From contig OZ360240.1 of the NCBI GenBank assembly GCA_977017645.1, positions 27,900,001 through 27,964,000 on the forward strand: DNA of 64,000 bases, given 5' to 3'. Below the pieces are notes generated by a model. It had not been told where the DNA came from, ran no database searches, and saw only the letters and a program-made list of their open reading frames with translations. Below are positions 1 through 59,791 of this stretch, one piece after another; position 1 is the first letter of the stretch; the number at the start of each line of letters is the position of its first letter. This DNA comes from Torpedo marmorata (lineage: Eukaryota). The translations under genes were made by a program, and so were the position numbers.

Positions 1-251
1 AAAACTCTGTGAAATCTCTTCGAGGGATGCCTACCCCAAAGAAGTTCTCCTTTGCCCTCCGAAGGGAGTTCTGTGGGATTCTCTCTCACTGCTCCCCATC
101 TGTAATCCCTGCTGCTCTCAAGTTCTACGACCAAGTACTCACCCAGACTCGCTTCCACAGCCACGTTTTCTTCTTCTCACGGTGTCTGCAGACTTTTGTG
201 TTTTACTCCATGGAATTAATAACAGCATTAGAAATCTTACTGCAGCCTTAC

Positions 252-1390
252 CTGAGTTGGCTTCCCAGACCACTTCCACAGCTGCCGGGCTGGGAGAAAG
301 GACGAGATTTTGGGACGATTCTCCACACTTGGCAACCTCTGTCTCTTTGATATCTCCTTGGCCTTTTGAAGTCGTAAATCTTCCTGCCTCTTTTGTTTGA
401 TCTTATTCGCTGACATCATAGACTTGACTGAGAAGGAGTGTGGGGAAATCTTCGTCTCTGACTGCCGTGGGTCTGAGGAGGCCAGCATTGCAGGTACAGG
501 TCGTGTCATACAGGTCTGAAGCAAGAGAGTCGAGTCGTCATCAGAGCTGTATGATGAGTCATCATTGTCTGATGAACACAGGCTGGATGTGGAGGTAGAA
601 CCAGACGTTGAAGAGGATGAAGATCCAGAGGACGAAGACAAGACAGAGAGCCTGGACATGAATCTCGACGTGACACTCTGCCGGAGGTTTCTATTTTCAT
701 CTTCATCATCCATGTATGAGAGTGAGCTATGACTGTCACTGTCACAATCCATACCAAACTCTGACTGGCCAGTGTACTCATTCATGGCTAAGCTGAGAGG
801 AAGGTTTTGCAGTTGAGTGTGTTTTCCTTTCAGAATTTCTATCCTTCCGTTTGGTTCTTTACTGATCAAAGCTGCCTGCGAGTAAGCAGCATCGGATTTC
901 ACTCCAAACTCCTTCTCACTCATCAGCAAGGCCTTTCCATTTTTTGTTTTGGGAGACATCACGCCTTCGTGATCTAATTTTACCAGATATTCTGTTTCTG
1001 CTTTCCTCTTCCCAGCTTTCGGGATTGATATGTCTAGTTTCTCCATCTTTCTGTACTTCAGCGGCTTAGGATTTGGCATCAGACTTGGGCTGCTGCCAAA
1101 GGCTCCAAATGTGCTGGCAATGCTACTGAAAGAGTCAACCTCAAAGCCACCACTGAACATGGGAGGAGGTAGGCCATGCATGGGGAGGAACCGCTCCTTA
1201 CCCCTCATCCTTCTTGTGCTTCCATTTAACTCAAACAAGTTTTCTAAAACTGCTGTATTTTTGTTGGAGATCTTTTTCTTTGTCTGAACAATCCCTGGCC
1301 AATTTATCAGTGCTTCGGATTTTTTACTCAGCATGTGTTCGCCTTTCAACAACGTCGTTACCTCAGATTTTGAAACTCCTTTTCCTTTAT
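252..1390 (-). CDS. BAHCC1: BAHCC1-like coding exon (1139 nt; Ser-rich region leading into the BAH domain)
   Basis: Encodes LVKLDHEGVMSPK...SSLCSSDNDDSSYSSDDD.LLLQTC..PVP...PSVENRPKISSFLPARQLWKWSGKPTQ, matching recalled BAHCC1 sequence just before the BAH domain. Acceptor ttcttttag|AT at 1391/1390; donor CAG|gtaagg at 252/251; phase 1 to 0. Confidence 0.9.
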
Positions 1391-2547
1391 CTAAAAGAAA
1401 GAATAATTTGTCTCATTTGAGCAGAGAGCAATGTAATGAATCATCTCGCTGTATAAATTATATCAACACAACTTTATAAATGTATTGGTTACTTGTTCTT
1501 TAAAAATTGTGACCACGCATTCACAATCAGAAAAATACTGTTAATCAGGTTACTAAATCCAGAACTGATGTTTCCTGATAAAAAAGACTTTGCTAATTTC
1601 TTACACCATTTTCTATGTGTGAATCATTTGGATACAATGTGAGAATTAACATTGTGAGAAATTTAATGTGCTCTATAAAGAGGGTATTAAATCATGTTCT
1701 AGTTCCTTTGCTATAGTTAAAGAAACTAAGCTCTAACACTTGGTATCAGTTGGTCTGAGAATGACCTGTTTCCCATATAGCAGTTACTCTGGCGAACCTA
1801 CAGTATGTGTCCTTATGGTTATTAGTAGCAAATTGTCTGTGGAGCCAAAAACATAATTATTCAAACCACGGAGAAGATATCATCCTTGATAGTCAATGTA
1901 TCTTAATCAGCATGCTACCTGTGGTTGTCTGTTGCCAAACCAGAGAACATGGACAATGACTTTAAAGGATGATTATTACATTCAAAGTGGTGATTTACCT
2001 GCATGTGATCGACTTTGACTCCATACATAACAACACTTAAAGATCTATGAATAGGATATTGTCCAAATATTAATATTCCTGTTCAAAATATTCTATCAAA
2101 ATAGAAGTGAGAACATTAGCAACTTGATGTTCTTTTTAATTAGGAGGAAAAATTACACATGACAAATTGGATAGGTCACCATAGACATTGGAGAATTTAT
2201 TTTTGCAAAATTGGGAGGGTGCTATTTAAAATTGCCAATGCCATTTTCCTGCCAGAGCTAGCAGGTTTGGTCGACTGCCCTCCTGAACAGGTGGCAAAAC
2301 CATCCATGAAAGATGGAAGCATCTTTTTAATATATGCACCGAATGTTTATATAATGTCATTGGGAACCAATTGCAATTTAGATGGAACCTAAGAGAAGAG
2401 GAAATGAGTTTTACACCAGGCCTTATAAGCAGAGAAGAGAATTGGAACAAGAGGCACAAAATATTGCTTGAACTAGTGTCATTATTTGGCAGAATGGCCC
2501 TACAGGGCCTTGACAGAAAACCTTAATCATCCCCTTACTGCCAATTA

Positions 2548-3748: not shown

Positions 3749-4159
3749 CTATAAGATCTTTAATGTTTCAACTGAATTTATTCATCTGTTTGGACACTAC
3801 AAAATACATTTACTGTCCTTTCACGGGACTTTCACAGATACAACTGTTGCTTTTTCTCGTCAGCTTGGCGAGAAGAAGCAAGTAGAGAAGTGGCTACTTC
3901 CTTTCAAGCCAAACAGTTCCGACAACCTTAATATAAGTTAGTTATCTGACCGCTGAAAATAGTTTGCTGGCATGCATAGAGTCACTGTGAAGCTTTAACA
4001 GGTCTGTCTGTGTAAACCAAACATTATCTTTTTTTTTTGTATTTAAATCCTTTATTTATAACACACAAAACTTGTAACCTTCTTGTTTATTGTTCTATGA
4101 AAAGTCTTTAAGTAACGTTCTAAGTGGTTGATTCTTAATAACAAAAGTATTGGTATAAA

Positions 4160-4330
4160 GGTTAACGTAGCTTAACGATGCTTAACGATCTTTAAGGTCA
4201 TTCAACGATATTCAACGTCTTAACGATGTTCAACAATCTTTAATGTTCTTTTAGGATGTTTAACTTTCTTTAACGATGCTCAAAGGTTGCTTAAGGGTTA
4301 TTAAACGATGTTAACGTGGTGCTTAAACGG
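4160..4330. repeat. Degenerate ~9-bp tandem array (TTAACGATG-like)
   Basis: Repeated units such as cttaacgatg, cttaacgatc, ttcaacgata, ttaacgatgtt and ttaaacgatg. Confidence 0.8.
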
Positions 4331-4353
4331 TCAACAGAAATTGTCGACACCCA

Positions 4354-4634
4354 ACTCACCATCCTCAGATCTCCAACTGACCACTCGCGCGGGGGAACCT
4401 ATATTTAAACCCCCCCCACCCCGCGCGTGCTCCTTTGTGCACGCGCTGGCCCTGGCTCCAATGGCTCACTGCCGGGTCCGAGCCAACCGCGCATGCGCAA
4501 ACTTGCTCCGCTTGCACCGCAAACGGTGCCGGCCATCATGCATGCGCCTGCTGGCACCCGCGCGCGTGCGCAGTAATCAACATGGCCGCGCACGGCCTAC
4601 CAACCAACTGGACGCCACCCAACATCAGGTAAGT
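4354..4634. promoter_or_regulatory. CpG-rich putative bidirectional promoter inside the insert
   Basis: Minus strand: TTTAAATATA (4409-4400), Inr TCAGTT (4380-4375), then ATG|GTGAGT. Plus strand: NRF1-like CGCGCATGCGCA (4488-4499), AACATGGC (Kozak/YY1-like, ATG at 4582), then AG|GTAAGT at 4628/4629. Confidence 0.55.
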
Positions 4635-5954
4635 AGCGAGCCTTTGGCTCTTACACCGGCCCCTAATTATTATAATAAGGCACCATGGCTATAATTATAA
4701 TAATTACTATCATAAAGAAAAACAAATGCACAGAATATAAATATAATGAACAATTAACTATGTAATATTCGAAACGTTACGCAGGTCTTCTTTTATCGTC
4801 TTTACCCCCATTCTGCAGTCCGTGTAGTGGGCAAAGTACAAACATAAAAATTCAACAAAATAAGTCAGTTTGTACTTATTACAGATCCTCCATCTTCTGT
4901 AGAATCCTTAAGTTACAAACGTCTACCAGTAAACCTCAGTTCAAATTCTTACTATGAGAAGCGGAATGCTGGAAAAAGGAAGAAATCCAAAAGACATGCT
5001 GAAGACGTATCTCGTGTTAAGCTCAAAAGGGGAGCTGTGTCTATTCTGTCTGAGGAAGATCTGAGGTTTACTGGTAGACGTTTGTAACTTAAGGATTCTA
5101 CAAACACTATCTTCTGTCTTGGCCAATATAATGAAGTGAATCATGCACTGTGCCAGAAGAAAATTTGTTACTTCCTTCCCCACAATGATTTTGTCAAGTC
5201 TGTTGTCTGATTTAATTCCACTCCATTCTAGAAACTCCAGCATATTCCCAGCCCTTTGTTTACAAGAGACAAGTTCCTGTGTAATCTGTCTTGTGATGGC
5301 CAGTGGTAACTTTACAAAATTCAAGAAACGGCCAAATTCCAGGATTGCTCAATGAACCATTAACCAATTGTAGGCTTTTAAAAAAAAACTAAATCTATTT
5401 TTAATCTGTTAGAAATGAATAGAACCAAACAGTTCCGGATGGATTGTGTACATATAATAAAAGCATTTCCTTATCCAGCAGTAAGAATTCAATTGCTGAC
5501 AGGAGAGAATGATCGGATTTTCCAATGAATCTAACTTTTAGAGGGTCAGGCTACATCTTTGCAACCAGTAACCTCTCCCCTCTGGTGAACTTTCACGGCA
5601 GAATGGATGAAACCCAGGGGCCACCTTGGATTCGCCTGGACTAAAATTTCTTCTGATCCATGTGGAATTTCACATTGGGTTATTGAGGAGCACTTTTGGT
5701 TCTAAGGCAATACTCAAACAATGAAGGCATCACTGGGCTAGGTTTTGCTTTGACAGGTTGGGCTTTAACTTGAAGGAATCCCTTTGCTTTATGACAATAT
5801 TTCTCATCTGTTTCACCACAGAATCTAATGAAATGTTTATCTGTCTGTTTCCATTGGCACAGCGTTCGATAGGATAGGATTTCTGGTATAGAGGCTTCTT
5901 CCAATTAACTATATTTTCTGACATGAAAATTGCCATCGATAGATTTGAGTTTTA

Positions 5955-18406: not shown

Positions 18407-20055
18407 CAGGTATACCCCGCTTTACGAAAGTAGAGCGTTCCTATGAAACCTTTCGTAAGCCAAAATGGCGTAAAGCGAAGACCCATTCACTACTATTTTT
18501 TTTTGGAATATTTTATTTGTATTTTTTTAAAGCCAAACATATTATCAATAACAAAAGTAATACATCATCAAATATAATATTCATCTGTTGACTATTATAC
18601 TAAAAAAACAACAAAATTACAAACAAAGAAAAACCCACCCACCCAATTCCCCCCTAAAATAAAGAAAGGAGAGAATGGAATAAGAAAAGGTTGAAGTAGA
18701 AAAGGAAAGAAGACGTTGGAGGTTCGTCGCCCACCCCGCAGGCTTAAATTACTTGGCATACTCGGATTTTTAAAGAGGAAATGGACATAGGTCCTGGAGG
18801 CGAGGAGGGGCCTGGTTATAGATTTACAGCCATATATTGTAAATATGGAGTCCAAATCTTTAAAAATATATCATATCTATTTCTAAGATTATAGGTAATC
18901 TTCTCAAGGGGAACACAACTGTACATTTCCTCATTCCATCTTGTTATACCTAGATGGGAATCAGACTTCCATGTGACCGCTATACATTTTCTGGCCACCG
19001 CAATGCGATTTCTACAAATTTTATTTGAAATTTTGATAGTCTCATCTTTGGTCTTATGCCAGAGATATTGCCCAATAGAAACAATTCTGGGCGTTGTGGG
19101 AACTGAATTCCTGTAATTTGTTCTAAGAGTTTCCCTAAATCCGTCCAGAAAGGTTTTACCTTGGGACATGACCAGGTTAAATGTAAAAATGTTCCTATTT
19201 CTTTGCCGCATCTAAAATATTTATCTGATATTTCTGATTTAAATTTATTCAATTTTTGCGGTGTGAGATACAACTGGTGCAAAAAATTATATTGCATCAG
19301 TCTGTATCTCACATTTATTGTGTTTTTCATACTGTCCCGACATAAGTTGGACCAGTTTTGTTCATTAATTATTATATCCAAGTCTGACTCCCATCTCTGT
19401 CTAGATCTATGTAGCCCCCTTGTTTAGGGGTTCCTTTCTGTAGTAAAAGTTAGGCTGCTGAAATAAACTTCTTTGTGATCCCCTTTCGAATCAAAGTCTC
19501 CACTTCACTGCATTCCGGTAGGGTCATTGATGGGCCCAATTTATCCCTTAAGTAAGATCTCAGCTGGAAATAGCATACTTATTTTTTAATTGTTCAAATG
19601 ACATAAGTTGCCCCGTTCATAGCAATCCTCGACACATCTGATCCCTTTTCGGGACCAGGTGTCCAGGATCTTATTATCCATTGTAAAAGGTATACACCTA
19701 TTTTGAGCCAGGGGCATTTTTGGAGATAACCTCCCCTTATTCCCAATCTGATAATTTATTTTATACCAGGTATCAATTATGTGTTTCAACAGGGGGGTTT
19801 CTTTCACACCGGATATTAATTTTTTATCCCATTTGTATATAAAGTCTTCTGCTATCCTCTCTCCCACCTTATGCAGTTCCATCTTTACCCAGGAAGGCTT
19901 GTCTCCCCCTGCGAAGGGGGTGACAAATTTCATTTGGGCTAGGCTATTTTTGTAAAAGCGAAAACCCATTCAAATTTCTTTCGGATAGCGAACACAGGTT
20001 TCTTCGTAAAAGCGAATTTGCGTAAAGCGAGTACTCATAAAGCGGGGTATACCTG
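18407..20055. mobile_element. Tigger-like MITE split by an L1 insertion
   Basis: Terminal inverted repeats caggtataccccgctttacga / tcataaagcggggtatacctg with TA on each side. The L1 fragment lies between the two halves. Confidence 0.8.
18495..19943 (-). mobile_element. 5'-truncated L1/Tx1-like LINE (frameshifted ORF2 end)
   Basis: Encodes INVRYRLMQYNFLHQLYLTP...C...H..WSCPKV..FW (zinc-knuckle region) and CIAVTWKSD...CVPLEKITY. Poly(T) on the plus strand at ~18496-18504. Confidence 0.88.
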
Positions 20056-23930: not shown

Positions 23931-26269
23931 ATAACAACCAGCTACCTACATAGTAGATAGCTGGTTGTTTTCATGTGTTTTGTGACTGTATTTTAAAGGG
24001 AAGCAATCCATGTGAGTGTGAATGTACCTTTAAGAAGCGAATGTACCGTGTGGTTTAACCTTGATACATTGTTATACCAGATTCTGCTGCTTTGTTTGAG
24101 AAAGATTGCCTTCAACAAAGGATATAATGTTGTTAGCTTCGCCTATTCTGAGCGATAGCCCTTGCAGCAACACTAAAGAAACCCACAGACACTACAGAAC
24201 GTTAATTCATATGAAAAAAAAACTTGGCCCAATTTGAAGCATTTAAGGTGCTGTTTCCACTTATCGTTAATTGAATCAGGACTGTTCTTAGTTCTTTCCA
24301 GCTGTTTAAAGGAATGATACTTCAGCCAAGTTCCACTCGTGGTTGATCACACAAGCGAGATGCGGAGATCCATGCTGGGTCAATTACGATTTCCTTGATT
24401 TAATGAGAATGTAGCCAATATGATTGTGCCTATCAATGTTTGTTAAACTAGCTTGCAAATCTCAATTCACTCTATTTTGACAGTTTGATTGAGCTGAGTT
24501 ATTGTTTCAGCTGAAGCCGGTAAAGGCAAAACTGCTGAGAATGGTTGCGCGAGTTCTGTGGCTGTTCAAATGACACTTCTGACATTCACCCTTTGTAGTC
24601 AAGAGAGCCCAATTCTCTTGCTATCGCTGGTGACGTAAATACGCTTCATTCAGGCTGAAAGTGAATAATGGTCAGTGTTTACCACTGCCTCCTTAGTTAG
24701 CTGCAGCATTGTTTGACTCAAGTTTGTGTACTTGTAACATTTTTTGATTGTTTTGTTCTGCTTTGGTGCATCGCATGATTCATGTTGGGAAGGAAGGAGT
24801 GGGGTGGAGAGAGTTGAGTTGAAAGTCTGCACAGTATTTAGTTAGGTTAGTGGACCGCAGCTCAGCAGATCAGTGCCAAAGCAATCATTTAAAAAAAGTC
24901 AAATCATTTTTTATTGCAAATGATCAAAATCATTGTTGCTTTTATTAGGATAAGCTGCACAGTTGTCATTTTGTTTGCTGCTATTATGGTCCATTCCCGT
25001 TAATTAAAGGTAATTTTCTTGCTGAACACAATTTGAGCCTCTTTCAGAAGTTGCCTGTGGTAGCAAGACAGGCACTTTGTTCAGTAATGAAGCCTGAAGC
25101 TCAGTATTTAAATATATCCGGGCCTTCTGAATGGGGTGCAGCTGTCAGACCAGCACCAATTCTAGGCCTGAAGAGGTCCCGGAATGAACTCCCATTCTAA
25201 CAATGCCATTTGGAGTACAGTGGTGGGATAGCTCCATGGGGAACAGACATTAGAAAGAGCTTTGGCATTGCTCTCACATTCAATTAAATGTTGCTTCCAC
25301 AAACTGCAGCAAAAGATCCTGTTGGGTCTGTCTTTACTTTACGACATTGCCTGAGGCTGCACTTTTATTCATCAGAGAGCATCTGCAGCAAACATGGGTT
25401 GCGGTAGAAACCATAGTGATGAAGGTATGACAATGTCCTCCTTGTGTTGTACAAATGATCTGAGTTAGAAGAATCGTTAGACTGAGAAACCTCAGTCTGA
25501 TTTCAGAAACCAGCTTGGAAGCAGAACATGATCATTGATGTTTATGACAATAGAAGGGTTGGGAGAGATGGTGCCATTTCCACAGGTTCCCTGATTCACG
25601 TGCTGCCAAAAAGTAAAGCAAATTTGCTTACAGCTAACCAAAGATCAACCTTCCTCTTCAGTAAATAATTCCAACAGTCATTGTGACACTCTCACATTCG
25701 AAACAGCATCTGACTCAGGTTTTGGTTGGCTTTCTTTATTCACTTCTCTGATATTGTTGATGGGTCTCCGTTATGACCAACAGGGAAATTGGCAACTTCA
25801 ACCTCAATGTGGCACAAATTTGATGGTCTCTCAGCTTTATCCTTCAGATACATTTGCAATTGGTGAGATTTTTTCGATGGACAAATTCATGACCGTTTGA
25901 GGTCCTAAGTTGAATGTCTTGTCCTGCATTTACACAGATGTTAAAACCTGTTTTGGGATATTTAAAATTATGATTAACACTGATGCAGGCCACAGGCATG
26001 TGTAAATTCATTTATCCATTTCTGCTAATTATAATCAGAAAGCTCTTTGGAACTGCTGCGAGAAAATATTAGTTCGAACAGGCCTGAGAAGTATCAAGAC
26101 CACACACGTAATACAACTGCAGGAAGTGCCAATGTGGATAATAACAATATCCCAGGAACTCTAAAGTGAAACATACCCTCTAAAACCACAACTAAATTAT
26201 AAATTTATTAATCTCTTGCTCATTCTAGTTGGTCCAACATTGCGCATGTAGTCAAGATTTTTCTTCAGC

Positions 26270-28127
26270 AAATATCTGGATATAAAATTAATTCTGATAA
26301 AAGTGAAATTATGGCATTATCTCAAGGGGATTATAGTAGATGTAAAGAAATTACACAATTTAAATGGGCAAAGGAGGGAATTAAATATTTGGGAGTAAGG
26401 GTTGATACAAAATTAGATAATTTATATAAATTAAATTATTTACCATTATTTGTGAAAATAAAGAAAGATTTAGAGAATTGGAAAGATTTACCTATAACTC
26501 TAATGGGTAGAGTAAATTGTATTAAAATGAATATTTTTCCAAGAATTCAGTATCTTTTTCAATCAATTCCTTATGGAATTTCTTGAAATTTTTTAAAAGA
26601 TTTAAATTTAATTATTAGGAAATTTTTATGGAAAGGAAAGTTAGCAAGAGTAAGTATGGAAAAATTAACTTGGAATTATGAAATGGGTGGCTTACAACTT
26701 CCTAATTTTCAAAATTATTATAAAGCAGCTCAATTGAAATTTGTTAATGAATTTTTTGATTTAACTAAATTTCCTGCTTGGATTAAAATAGAATTAAATA
26801 ATATAGGTGATGATTTCAAAGAAGAAATTATTTATAAATGGGATTCTAAATTAATATCAACAAAAAAGAAAAATTCGCCTATTTTTAAACATTTGTTAGA
26901 AATATGGAACAAGACAGACAAGGAAATAGGAGGAAAAGGATTGATTTCTTCAAAGATGCCTTTATATCAAAATGGACTTATTCCATTTACTATTAATAAT
27001 CAATTATTTAAAATTTGGTTTCAAAAAGGAATTAAGAAGATTAATGATTGTTTTGAAGCTGGGAAATTTATTACATTTCAAAGAATGAAACTAAATTTAA
27101 TATATTAGATAATACTATGTTTGCTTATTATCAAATTAGAGCTTTTTTGATTGAGAAATTAGGTTATGCTTTGATTTTACCAAGACAAAATGAATTAGAA
27201 TTATTAGTTACTAATGGAGATGTTAATAAATTTATTTCTCAAATGTATAAATTGTTTCAGAGGAAAATGCCTAAAGTAGGTTTGCATAAATCAAGATTAA
27301 AATGGGAACTAGATTTGAATGTAAGAATAGATGAAAATCATTGGAAAGAATTATGTAAATTAAGTATGACGAAGATTATTAATGTTAGATATAGACTAGT
27401 ACAATATAATTTTTTCATCAATTATATTTAACACCTAAAAAATTAAAGAAATTTAATCCGACATTATCAGGTTTATGTTTTAGATGTAATAAAGAAGAAG
27501 GTTCTTTTGTACATTCTACATGGTTTTGTCCAAAAGTTTATGATTTTTGGTTGAAAGTTAAAAAATTTTTAGATAAAGTATTTAAGATTACATTTCCAAT
27601 GGATCCTATGATATTTTTGTTTGGAGATATTAGAAAGTTTAGCATTAAGAAGAAATTAAATATGTATCAAGTAGAATTTTTACGAATTGCTTTAGCTGTT
27701 TCAAAAAAATGCATTGCTATTACTTGGAAATCTGATTTAGATTTAGGATTAGAAAGATGGCATGCAGAACTTCGTTCGTGTATACCACTTGAAAAAATTA
27801 CCTAGAATTTACGTAATAAATATCATTTTTTCTTAAAAGTTTGGAGCCCATATATGAGAGCTGTGGGTTTAAGGATTTGATGATCTCTGGATATCGGATG
27901 TACTGGCATGCTTGACCTCCACAATAGAATTAGTTTATAGATGGCATTCCCCCTTACTCTATCCTTTTCTTTCTTTCTTTTTTCTATTTTTACTTTTTTT
28001 TAATATTTTATTAGATTAGTGGGGTTGGGGAGGGGAGGGAGGGTGAAAATGTATCACATGTATTTTGATAATTTTATATTTTATCTTATGTATTTTGTGA
28101 TTAAAAATTGAAATAAAATATAAAAAA
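26270..28127 (+). mobile_element. 5'-truncated L1/Tx1-like LINE (ORF2 C-terminal half, decayed, very AT-rich)
   Basis: Encodes SGYKINSDKSE...IKYLGV...ITLMGRVNCIKMNIFPRIQYLFQ...GGLQLPNFQNYYKAAQ. A-tail and a 16-bp TSD aagatttttcttcagc at 26254-26269 / 28128-28143. Confidence 0.92.
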
Positions 28128-54905: not shown

Positions 54906-55165
54906 AAACACGAAAGTCTGCAGACGCTGTGATTGTTGTAAAATCTCACAGAAATGCTGGGGGATCTCAGCCAGTCTCACAGCGTCCATTGGAGGTGAAG
55001 ATATATTACCGACGTTTTGGGCCTGAGCCCTTCTTCAAGGTATAAGCTACACATATCTTATATCTTGAAGAAGGGCTCAGGCCTGAAACGTTGGTAATAT
55101 ATCTTTACCTCTAAAAGATGCTGCGAGATCGGCTGAGTTCCTCCAGCATTTCTGTGTGTTTTTAT
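54906..55165. mobile_element. Palindromic Penelope-derived element (two inverted terminal units)
   Basis: 100-bp arms at 54947-55046 and 55057-55156 are near reverse complements around a 10-nt loop. Each arm carries the hammerhead-like core. Confidence 0.82.
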
Positions 55166-59007: not shown

Positions 59008-59791
59008 GTAAAACATGAAAGTCTGCAGACACCGTGCTTGAAGTAAAAACACAAAGCTGGAGAAACTCAGCTGGTCAAACAGTACAATATATAGCAAAGA
59101 TAAAGATACATAACCAACCCTTCATCAAGGTATGAAAAAATGTCAGCAGGAGCCTGAACAAAATGGTAGGGAAGGAGGGGCAGGGGGAGGAGCACGGTCC
59201 CAAAGACAGGAGGTAATAGGTGGATAAGGGAGGGAGGGCATGCCAGCAAGCAGGGGAGGAGGGATGGCTCTGTGAATGGAGAGGGAAGGAGATGGGGAGC
59301 TGGAGGAAAGAAGACAAAGGGAAAGGGAAGGGAGGGAGAACTGGGAGCAGGCTAGCAGAAACCGGAGAAGTCGATGTGTTGTTCTTCCAATTTACAGGTG
59401 GAACACTTGATTTTCCATCTGGGCACTCTCCAACCAGATAGCATTCACATCGACTTCTCCAGTTTCTGCTAGCCTATTCTCCGTTCTCCCTCCCTTCCCT
59501 TTGTCTTCTTTCGTCCAGCTCTCCACCCCTTCCCTCTTCATTCACAGAGCCATCACTGCTTCCCCTACTTGCTGGTGTGCCCTCCCTCCCTTATCCACCT
59601 CTTACCACCTGCCTTTGGGACTGTGCTCCTCCCCCTGCCCCTCCCTACCACCATTTTGTTCAGGCGCCTGCCGACATTTTTTCATACCTTGATGAAGGGC
59701 TCAAGCCTGAAATGTTGGCTATGTATCTTTATCTTTGCTGTATAAGGTACACTGTTTGACCAACTGAGCTTCTCCAGCATTGTGTTTTTAC
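59008..59791. mobile_element. Inverted pair of Penelope-like termini
   Basis: 59043-59378 and 59446-59791 are reverse-complement copies of the same Penelope-like 3' region. Confidence 0.82.

Follow-up and report, generated by a model that had tools for sequence, protein, structure and literature searches.

The window analyzed here, a stretch of 64,000 nucleotides of Torpedo marmorata, carries at 4018–5111 an insert of about 1.07 kb for which no second copy was found within the 64 kb. Its features are the following:

4018–4028, no strand: target-site duplication, tail-side copy, read from the letters themselves; in runs X2 and X3 the empty site has it only once.
4029–4038, minus strand: poly(A) tail, placed where intact LTRs run on into a U5 of about 98 nt; at most two of the ten A may be templated.
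4051–4056, minus strand: AATAAA polyadenylation signal of the LTR, read directly.
4039–4377, minus strand: R region of the 3′ LTR, 93.5–98.3% identical to nine of nine parents over 4040–4330; its probable 5′ border is set by the initiator-like motif.
4158–4277, minus strand: tandem array of units of about 10 nt within R, also found in family copies.
4330–4346, minus strand: R arm b, a candidate self-primer, 17 nt complementary to the sequence behind the 5′ LTR of full elements.
4347–4366, minus strand: R arm a, complementary to the U5 of full LTRs (U5 is absent here); it contains a splice-donor-like GTGAGT.
4375–4409, minus strand: initiator-like TCAGTT (4380–4375) with a TATA-like box (4409–4400) about 30 nt upstream, both recognized by sequence only.
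4378–4655, minus strand: U3 of the 3′ LTR, rich in GC and CpG; the LTR start TGT is at 4655.
4656–4667, minus strand: polypurine-tract (PPT) position, immediately before the 3′ LTR, with a motif common to families A to E.
4668–4942, minus strand: uninverted 3′ internal sequence of the subfamily that carries MIPOL1, 91.8–94.4% identical to nine of nine parents.
4938–5100, plus strand: inverted 5′ piece, corresponding to the last ~52 codons of a frame downstream of the MIPOL1 cargo.
5101–5111, no strand: target-site duplication, distal copy, read from the letters and from the empty-site contigs.

The insert is bracketed by CAAACATTATC (4018–4028) and CAAACACTATC (5101–5111), an 11-bp duplication with one mismatch whose probability of arising by chance at one given place is about 2e-5. 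The tail appears on the forward strand as T10 (4029–4038), the minus-strand AATAAA (4056–4051) lies 12 nt before it, and at the far end a 45-nt inverted pair (4898–4942 and 5058–5102) is complementary at 98%. The target duplication, the poly(A) with its signal and the fold-back had been recognized in the initial annotation, and all match its description. Relative to the parent element L031, positions 9–914 of the insert are colinear and positions 910–1072 inverted, with 45 nt present twice. The inner joint of the inversion has a 5-nt overlap, matching at four of five positions, and the outer joint a 2-nt overlap with the target duplication.

Downstream of the insert, at a distance of 2.6 kb, is a 391-codon frame with two BAH-domain exons after it (window 237–1412 and L176:7087–8544, both minus strand). 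This gene, which we take to be TNRC18/BAHCC1-like, has the same sense as the insert, and the AATAAA could therefore end host transcripts early. L1-type copies had been reported nearby, and fragments at 18816–19969 and 26212–27805 bear this out; they are presumably L1-type ORF2, judging by similarity to nested L1 pieces. Toward the far end of the window, common repeat copies form long self-inverted repeats of 80–83% identity (59043–59791 and 54939–55164).

The insert had been described as foreign-looking, and it is indeed unique within the window, but a self-search of the genome, in which 40 of 5331 candidates were scored (83–100% identity), found 39 other places that match it at 83–91%. Several of these matches are direct pairs lying 5.5–8.3 kb apart, and 12 long loci each hold a two-LTR element in the sense of the window's minus strand. 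The paired LTRs are 86.5–92.9% alike and end in TGT...CA, a PPT is present, and target duplications of 5 bp were sought around seven parents, with three exact, two with one mismatch and two absent; they also occur in family-D pairs. Frames of the parents match the Pfam families SAP, DUF1759, Peptidase_A17 and DUF5641, and one copy, L035 (SAP, DUF1759, Peptidase_A17, a weak rve and DUF5641), is colinear with the full BEL/Pao polyprotein P0016. Similarity to P0016 extends to residue 1997 in L035 and ends at about residue 896 in the non-autonomous copies, while an RVT_1 match in L037, at first sight a BEL RT, belongs to a nested L1 and was discounted. The closest named protein is that of a killifish locus (P0031). 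Like the Belpaoviridae (Semotivirus), for which LTRs of 0.4–0.8 kb, a gag-pol in PR-RT-RH-IN order and a PPT are described (PMC8742986), the parents combine two LTRs, a PPT and a gag-pol in BEL/Pao domain order; unlike that profile, they show no tRNA-Arg or tRNA-Gly primer site, and RT, RH and most of IN are missing from the donor subfamily. The parents are thus BEL/Pao by proteins and structure and atypical in the primer-site trait.

Capture from a compact DNA virus or a Polinton-like element had been suggested as the origin of the insert, and CpG richness, the repeat array and uniqueness within the window speak for it. Observed/expected CpG is 1.10 in the insert against 0.23–0.74 in 2-kb bins of the window, but dense CpG fails as a sign of foreignness, the value of 1.0 for the insert equaling the family median of 1.0 among 29 top-scoring copies chosen by similarity to the insert; the array, likewise genuine (4158–4277), is an LTR feature of the family. 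Alignment to BEL/Pao-type parents covers all bases from 4037 to 5100, at 88–98%. The viral reading is refuted by these parents, full-length BEL/Pao LTR retrotransposons of the same genome with DUF1759, Peptidase_A17 and DUF5641; genome copies, alignment and domains together rule out a DNA-virus source, whose likelihood we regard as vanishingly small. A match to an already classified repeat, which the initial annotation had itself named as grounds for giving up its proposal, is what was found, and its other suggestion, an undescribed non-autonomous element, was partly right, the donor subfamily being non-autonomous. A search of a phage collection returned no match, which says little on animal viruses, and IMG/VR held no relative. 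What underlies the supposed two-way promoter is, on the minus strand, the TATA and initiator-like motif of an LTR. The two supposed divergent spliced reading frames are unsupported: none of three frames of the insert matched Pfam, and they fall within U3, R and the untranslated 3′ portion of the element.

One further observation concerns the U3 (window 4331–4654), where observed/expected CpG across 29 family copies is about 1.0 despite an LTR-pair divergence of about 10%, with a window background of about 0.4; the U3 may escape germline methylation.

The manner in which the insert arrived can be read from its ends. Where the insert carries its tail, intact LTRs run on into about 98 nt of U5, and U5 was looked for beyond that tail and was absent. 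Counted by exact 25-mers in the insert's own genome, there are 62 tailed ends as opposed to 442 U5-bearing intact LTR ends. Among four runs examined, one contig in each of X2 and X3 joins 4017 to 5101 with zero letters between, the empty site that had been expected in orthologues; a filled site was looked for in these two organisms and was not seen. A contig of run X1, which may be the assembly's own sample, crosses the filled distal junction (5065–5676), and run X6 did not cover the flanks. Since the site is empty in the X2 and X3 organisms and their flanks diverge by about 7–8% from the window, the insertion is younger than the split from them.

The insert is almost certainly the tailed 3′ end of a BEL/Pao LTR retrotransposon transcript, comprising the internal tail, the PPT, U3-R and poly(A) without U5. 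It was very probably inserted by LINE twin priming, a structure seen directly, from which the enzyme is deduced; the earlier suggestion of target-primed insertion of a polyadenylated RNA with 5′ inversion is thereby upheld, the empty site having been found. A single transcript, cleaved and polyadenylated at the poly(A) site of the LTR, would have been taken up by the LINE, with first-strand synthesis over 914 nt. The second DNA end would have been primed 45 nt inside the first strand and copied about 160 nt further, which would account for the inversion, for the 45 nt present twice and for the target duplication of 11 bp. On the minus strand the target site reads cag/AAGA, a loose fit to TT/AAAA. 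An element that integrated in the ordinary way and was afterwards truncated and rearranged at the DNA level is highly improbable; although nested insertions and deletions break many family copies, this one ends exactly at the poly(A) site, as do 61 others, and without U5, its duplication measures 11 bp and not 5 bp, and the empty site is otherwise clean.

In the 15 of 62 tailed copies examined, the 5′ ends are scattered, seven have a duplication-like upstream match of at least 10 bases (chance not computed), and at least three are inverted. No transcription start or cut site could be mapped from these 15; the end of L192 at the R arm, considered as such a mark, proved to be an alignment artefact of the repeat array. 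Splicing from R at the GTGAGT motif was also sought, and no such joint occurs among 15 listed of 100. Two tailed copies on different contigs, L180 and L190, have 45 nt of 5′ context in common, which suggests a secondary source copy.

This anatomy has known counterparts. HERV-W processed pseudogenes, as described in the portion of PMC5016936 consulted, have a 3′ LTR of U3-R, a poly(A) tail and a 5–15-bp target duplication, and the insert resembles them as an LTR-element RNA copied by LINE machinery with these same marks; it differs in its BEL/Pao donor in a fish genome, in being a 5′-truncated and inverted copy and in its loose TT/AAAA. In the twin-priming retrocopies covered by excerpts of PMC2912911, the 5′ piece is inverted, with microhomology at both joints and a normal tail and target duplication. 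The insert likewise has an inverted 5′ piece, short overlaps at both joints, a tail and a target duplication, and compared with the anatomy in those excerpts it has, in addition, 45 nt duplicated at the breakpoint.

The donor proved to be the more unusual partner. Of 38 elements compared, 12 match the inverted piece, and every one of these carries exons of the host gene MIPOL1, whereas five autonomous relatives that match the PPT side only carry none; autonomous copies share only about 22% of the stretch 4700–4942. In the donor subfamily a foreign stretch replaces RT, RNase H and most of integrase. Because the insert ends about 206 nt short of this cargo, with no MIPOL1 match found in it, the cargo is a property of the parents and not of the 1.07-kb insert itself. 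In a protein search with the cargo, 20 of 20 matches bore two MIPOL1 Pfam families, the best being a sawfish protein at 71%, and the order of residues was scrambled, with about 350–469 first and 210–300 after. Protein Atlas gave no usable match for the host exon, and for the cargo frame only weak coiled-coil matches, with MIPOL1 at rank 12.

From this order it had been predicted that host exons should end at residue 469 and begin at residue 210, and both borders exist in the host gene, of which 340 kb were read on contig C40. Exon B begins and exon H ends exactly at the predicted borders, with B upstream and the two 206 kb apart; host exons B to H have AG/GT ends and total 780 nt, a multiple of three. 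The cargo itself is 587 nt of intron-free sequence in the order F (nt 48–171), G, H, B, C and D (nt 1–18), and the joints F|G, G|H, H|B, B|C and C|D are all exact, H passing to B without a base added or lost. Exon identity to the elements is 93–98% in younger and 77–93% in older copies, and exons A and I were matched in none of the 38 elements. A 26-nt sequence across the H–B joint has 219 exact copies in the genome (control 0). The outer borders of the cargo lie inside exons, at nt 48 of F and nt 18 of D, and are common to the younger copies displayed (four on the 5′ side, three on the 3′ side). The cargo has multiplied under at least three different LTRs, and it stands in one open frame with the protease end in two of 11 copies with a readable joint (four more gave no joint text). 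Its pN/pS is 0.61–0.81 in nine family-A copies and 0.29–1.39 in six younger ones; purifying selection is unsupported by these values, and the cargo evolves near neutrally. Around the cargo, L031 has about 150 codons before it and about 110 after it (L031:2870–3360 and 1900–2250) that match neither P0016 nor MIPOL1 and are perhaps further captures; the inverted piece of the window derives from the stretch after the cargo. Two older cargo-bearing elements also lie within introns of MIPOL1 itself (L208:6670–7800 and L209:4300–5450).

The exactness of the H–B joint means that the template was most likely a 780-nt circle of exons B to H, and it is likely, judging from joint and exon order, that the MIPOL1 cargo was captured from a circular RNA. 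On this account RT, RNase H and most of integrase would have dropped out of a BEL/Pao element, which took up 587 nt of spliced MIPOL1 as a circle of B to H, co-packaged in the particle, was copied between two template switches, and the cargo-bearing derivative would then have multiplied with presumed helper enzymes acting in trans. The scrambled order could conceivably have come about instead, in the same element and by the same insertion route, through template switches on the ordinary linear mRNA, or by way of a transcript that was itself duplicated or trans-spliced. Exon H ends in ACAG and exon A in TAAG, exons I and B both start with C, and this 3-nt microhomology (AG|C) in linear MIPOL1 mRNA makes such a switch possible at the joint; it is established that LTR elements can take up linear mRNA by template switching (as summarized in the part of PMC5408686 consulted), and non-colinear joints can arise by other means, according to PMC4897178. 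Such a switch would, however, have had to hit two exon borders at once, whereas the outer cargo borders lie inside exons, as random switches do; the cargo is, moreover, confined to B–H, with A and I absent, and no second copy of exons B–H was found in the 340 kb of the host gene. We consider origin from linear mRNA unlikely and retain the circular template.

The nearest precedent is that of the mouse circRFWD2 pseudogenes, for which PMC4897178 reports 33 high-confidence copies with LTR-enriched flanks, calls the mechanism unknown and uses a non-colinear joint at true splice sites as the criterion for circRNA-derived sequence. The cargo is similar to what is described there in its intron-free, non-colinear exons, its exact back-splice joint, its many copies and the LTR sequence around it. 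It differs from the mouse case in at least 219 exact joints, in lying inside full two-LTR BEL/Pao elements where it replaces pol, and in being found with three or more types of LTR, some copies continuing the gag-protease frame. Maize Bs1 and the work of Tan and coworkers, as outlined in the same part of PMC5408686, show host mRNA captured by an LTR element; the donor resembles these cases in that host exons lie in an LTR element that is non-autonomous, with co-packaging and template switching as the explanation, and differs in that the captured exons are circularly permuted.

A second peculiarity of the donor lies at its primer site. The ICTV profile of the BEL/Pao family gives an 18-nt site for tRNA-Arg or tRNA-Gly (PMC8742986), and no TGG was found within 12 nt after the LTR in any of 20 true 5′ LTRs from four families (a 21st, L071, was excluded as a miscalled 3′ LTR), so that, judged by the missing TGG, these families appear to have no tRNA primer site. 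The position of that site, 4–6 nt behind the 5′ LTR, pairs instead with R arm b (window 4330–4346). In family A the duplex is 11–18 bp, and none of 100 shuffles was as good in 12 of 12 LTRs; the pairing is weaker in families B and C, where 0–11 of 100 shuffles attain the energy observed, and in L061 and L055 the duplex scan chose another stem. From family to family the letters of both partners in the duplex vary (A, B, C, E and the family of L231, which has a 15-bp match with other letters), the changes in family C not being counted because their register is ambiguous. Over six LTR families in all, D included, arm and site co-vary, and they do so between copies too (L070 and L078). A prediction for family D held in eight of 12 leaders (30 loci), with 11–13 bp at an offset of 5–6 nt and not the predicted 4, and two copies of that family show a paired change. 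The swap control was clean for families A and C only, the arms of B and D pairing equally well or better with the family-A site. In the minimum-energy fold of the leader, the R/U5 helix forms and not the R/primer-site helix (z −1.67); the arm a/U5 helix, which varies among families, and the R/primer-site helix cross each other, and copy-level co-variation of arm a with U5 in family A was unconvincing, with an A–C mismatch in six of 15.

Joints that look like fossils of such priming also occur. Two loci, one of them a 3′ LTR, fuse arm b to reversed spacer and U5, and in one locus the primer site is a 25-nt perfect complement of the arm; loci of the fossil type (L064 at G000:C2:287394713, L065 and L063) gave three matches (control 0). 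A DNA-level switch between inverted repeats could fit the 5′ LTR fossil, and less easily the 3′ LTR fossil. The family-A primer site stands head-to-tail two to five times in several loci (L031:7150–7210, L035, L039 and L040), possibly through slipped second-strand transfers.

Loci from outside this genome were also examined. Among 80 metagenome loci, 32 had terminal repeats and 18 had both LTR ends, with TGG in none of the 18. A splice-junction primer test on 14 of these 18, leaving out three near-duplicates and one partial LTR, was clear in eight, weak in three and negative in three. In the eight clear loci (L100, L102, L104, L105, L115, L116, L129 and L137) the pairing spans 11–15 bases with no G–U, is completed only across a GTAAG...AG intron inside the LTR, and was equaled in none of 15 shuffles each. 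The arm is contiguous in L098 and in the Torpedo marmorata families (three of three tested), where a splice-junction primer, also considered, is unneeded. An integrase tree of 43 rows (midpoint-rooted, with L147 left out and no clade test applied) places the contiguous types in a single clade with support of 0.98, which includes five rows without readable LTRs, and spliced types lie on both sides of the root. With such a root, no clade test and those five rows, the loss of the intron in this lineage is a lead and not a result.

It is somewhat probable, on grounds of complementarity and co-variation, that the donor subfamily primes reverse transcription with its own RNA. A 5′ piece of that RNA would serve as primer, arm b pairing with the site behind the 5′ LTR and being cut at its 3′ end as in Tf1, from which both cleavage and priming are argued by analogy; arm b would lie 30–49 nt behind the transcript start, itself placed from motifs. 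The complementarity could instead be a folding or packaging element, with a tRNA fragment or another cellular RNA as primer, and the ICTV profile with its tRNA-Arg/tRNA-Gly site (PMC8742986) and the predicted preference for the R/U5 fold are in keeping with this. Such a primer is nonetheless doubtful, as the site varies in step with the R arm of the element itself between families and between copies, begins 4–6 nt from the LTR end and, in the eight of 14 distant relatives, is completed only across the LTR intron, and Rfam gave no match in L033:6300–7500 at E≤1.

Self-priming is familiar from Tf1/Tf2/Tj1, sushi and Tcn1, for which the parts of PMC4600332 and PMC6317226 consulted describe the lack of a tRNA site and a site complementary to the element's own 5′ RNA. 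The families here agree with those descriptions, no tRNA site being seen and the site being complementary to a 5′ segment of the RNA. They depart from them in being BEL/Pao and not Ty3/gypsy or a copia TAR, in an arm that would lie 30–49 nt inside the transcript and not at its 5′ end, in a second helix with U5 that crosses the first, and in distant relatives whose arm is split by an intron. A literature search at the level of listings found no paper on BEL/Pao self-priming; subscription papers on Suzu and entries of Repbase, outside its scope, may already mention the site; the words "primer", "priming" and "tRNA" are absent from PMC3118150, and the excerpts of PMC3601003 give hairpin priming for chromoviruses only.

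Taken as a whole, the account of a tailed BEL/Pao end inserted via LINE twin priming, from a self-priming donor with circular-RNA cargo, is reasonably likely. The broader proposition is that a self-priming BEL/Pao element packaged a host circular RNA, copied part of it across the back-splice joint in place of pol and spread to hundreds of loci under several LTRs, and that the contiguous self-primer of this vertebrate lineage goes back to the loss of an LTR intron through which invertebrate relatives build theirs; we place its chances at about even.

The insert alone is of a known kind, a textbook processed copy. What is new is the donor, a BEL/Pao element that is non-autonomous, likely primes itself and has spread a back-spliced piece of a host gene to hundreds of loci. 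Given its near-neutral evolution, the cargo implies no function for the host. The ICTV profile lists tRNA priming for BEL/Pao, and the families here show a co-varying self-complementarity that is vertebrate and intron-less. The mouse study (PMC4897178) left the route of circular RNAs into genomes unexplained, and since the back-splice joint lies within complete elements, with two LTRs, in which each switch point can be read, co-packaging in particles becomes a testable route. The circular-RNA cargo, if truly such, would date a germline MIPOL1 circular RNA in a cartilaginous-fish lineage, and, if the reading of the joint is true, these elements would preserve intact the way in which circular RNAs get into genomes.
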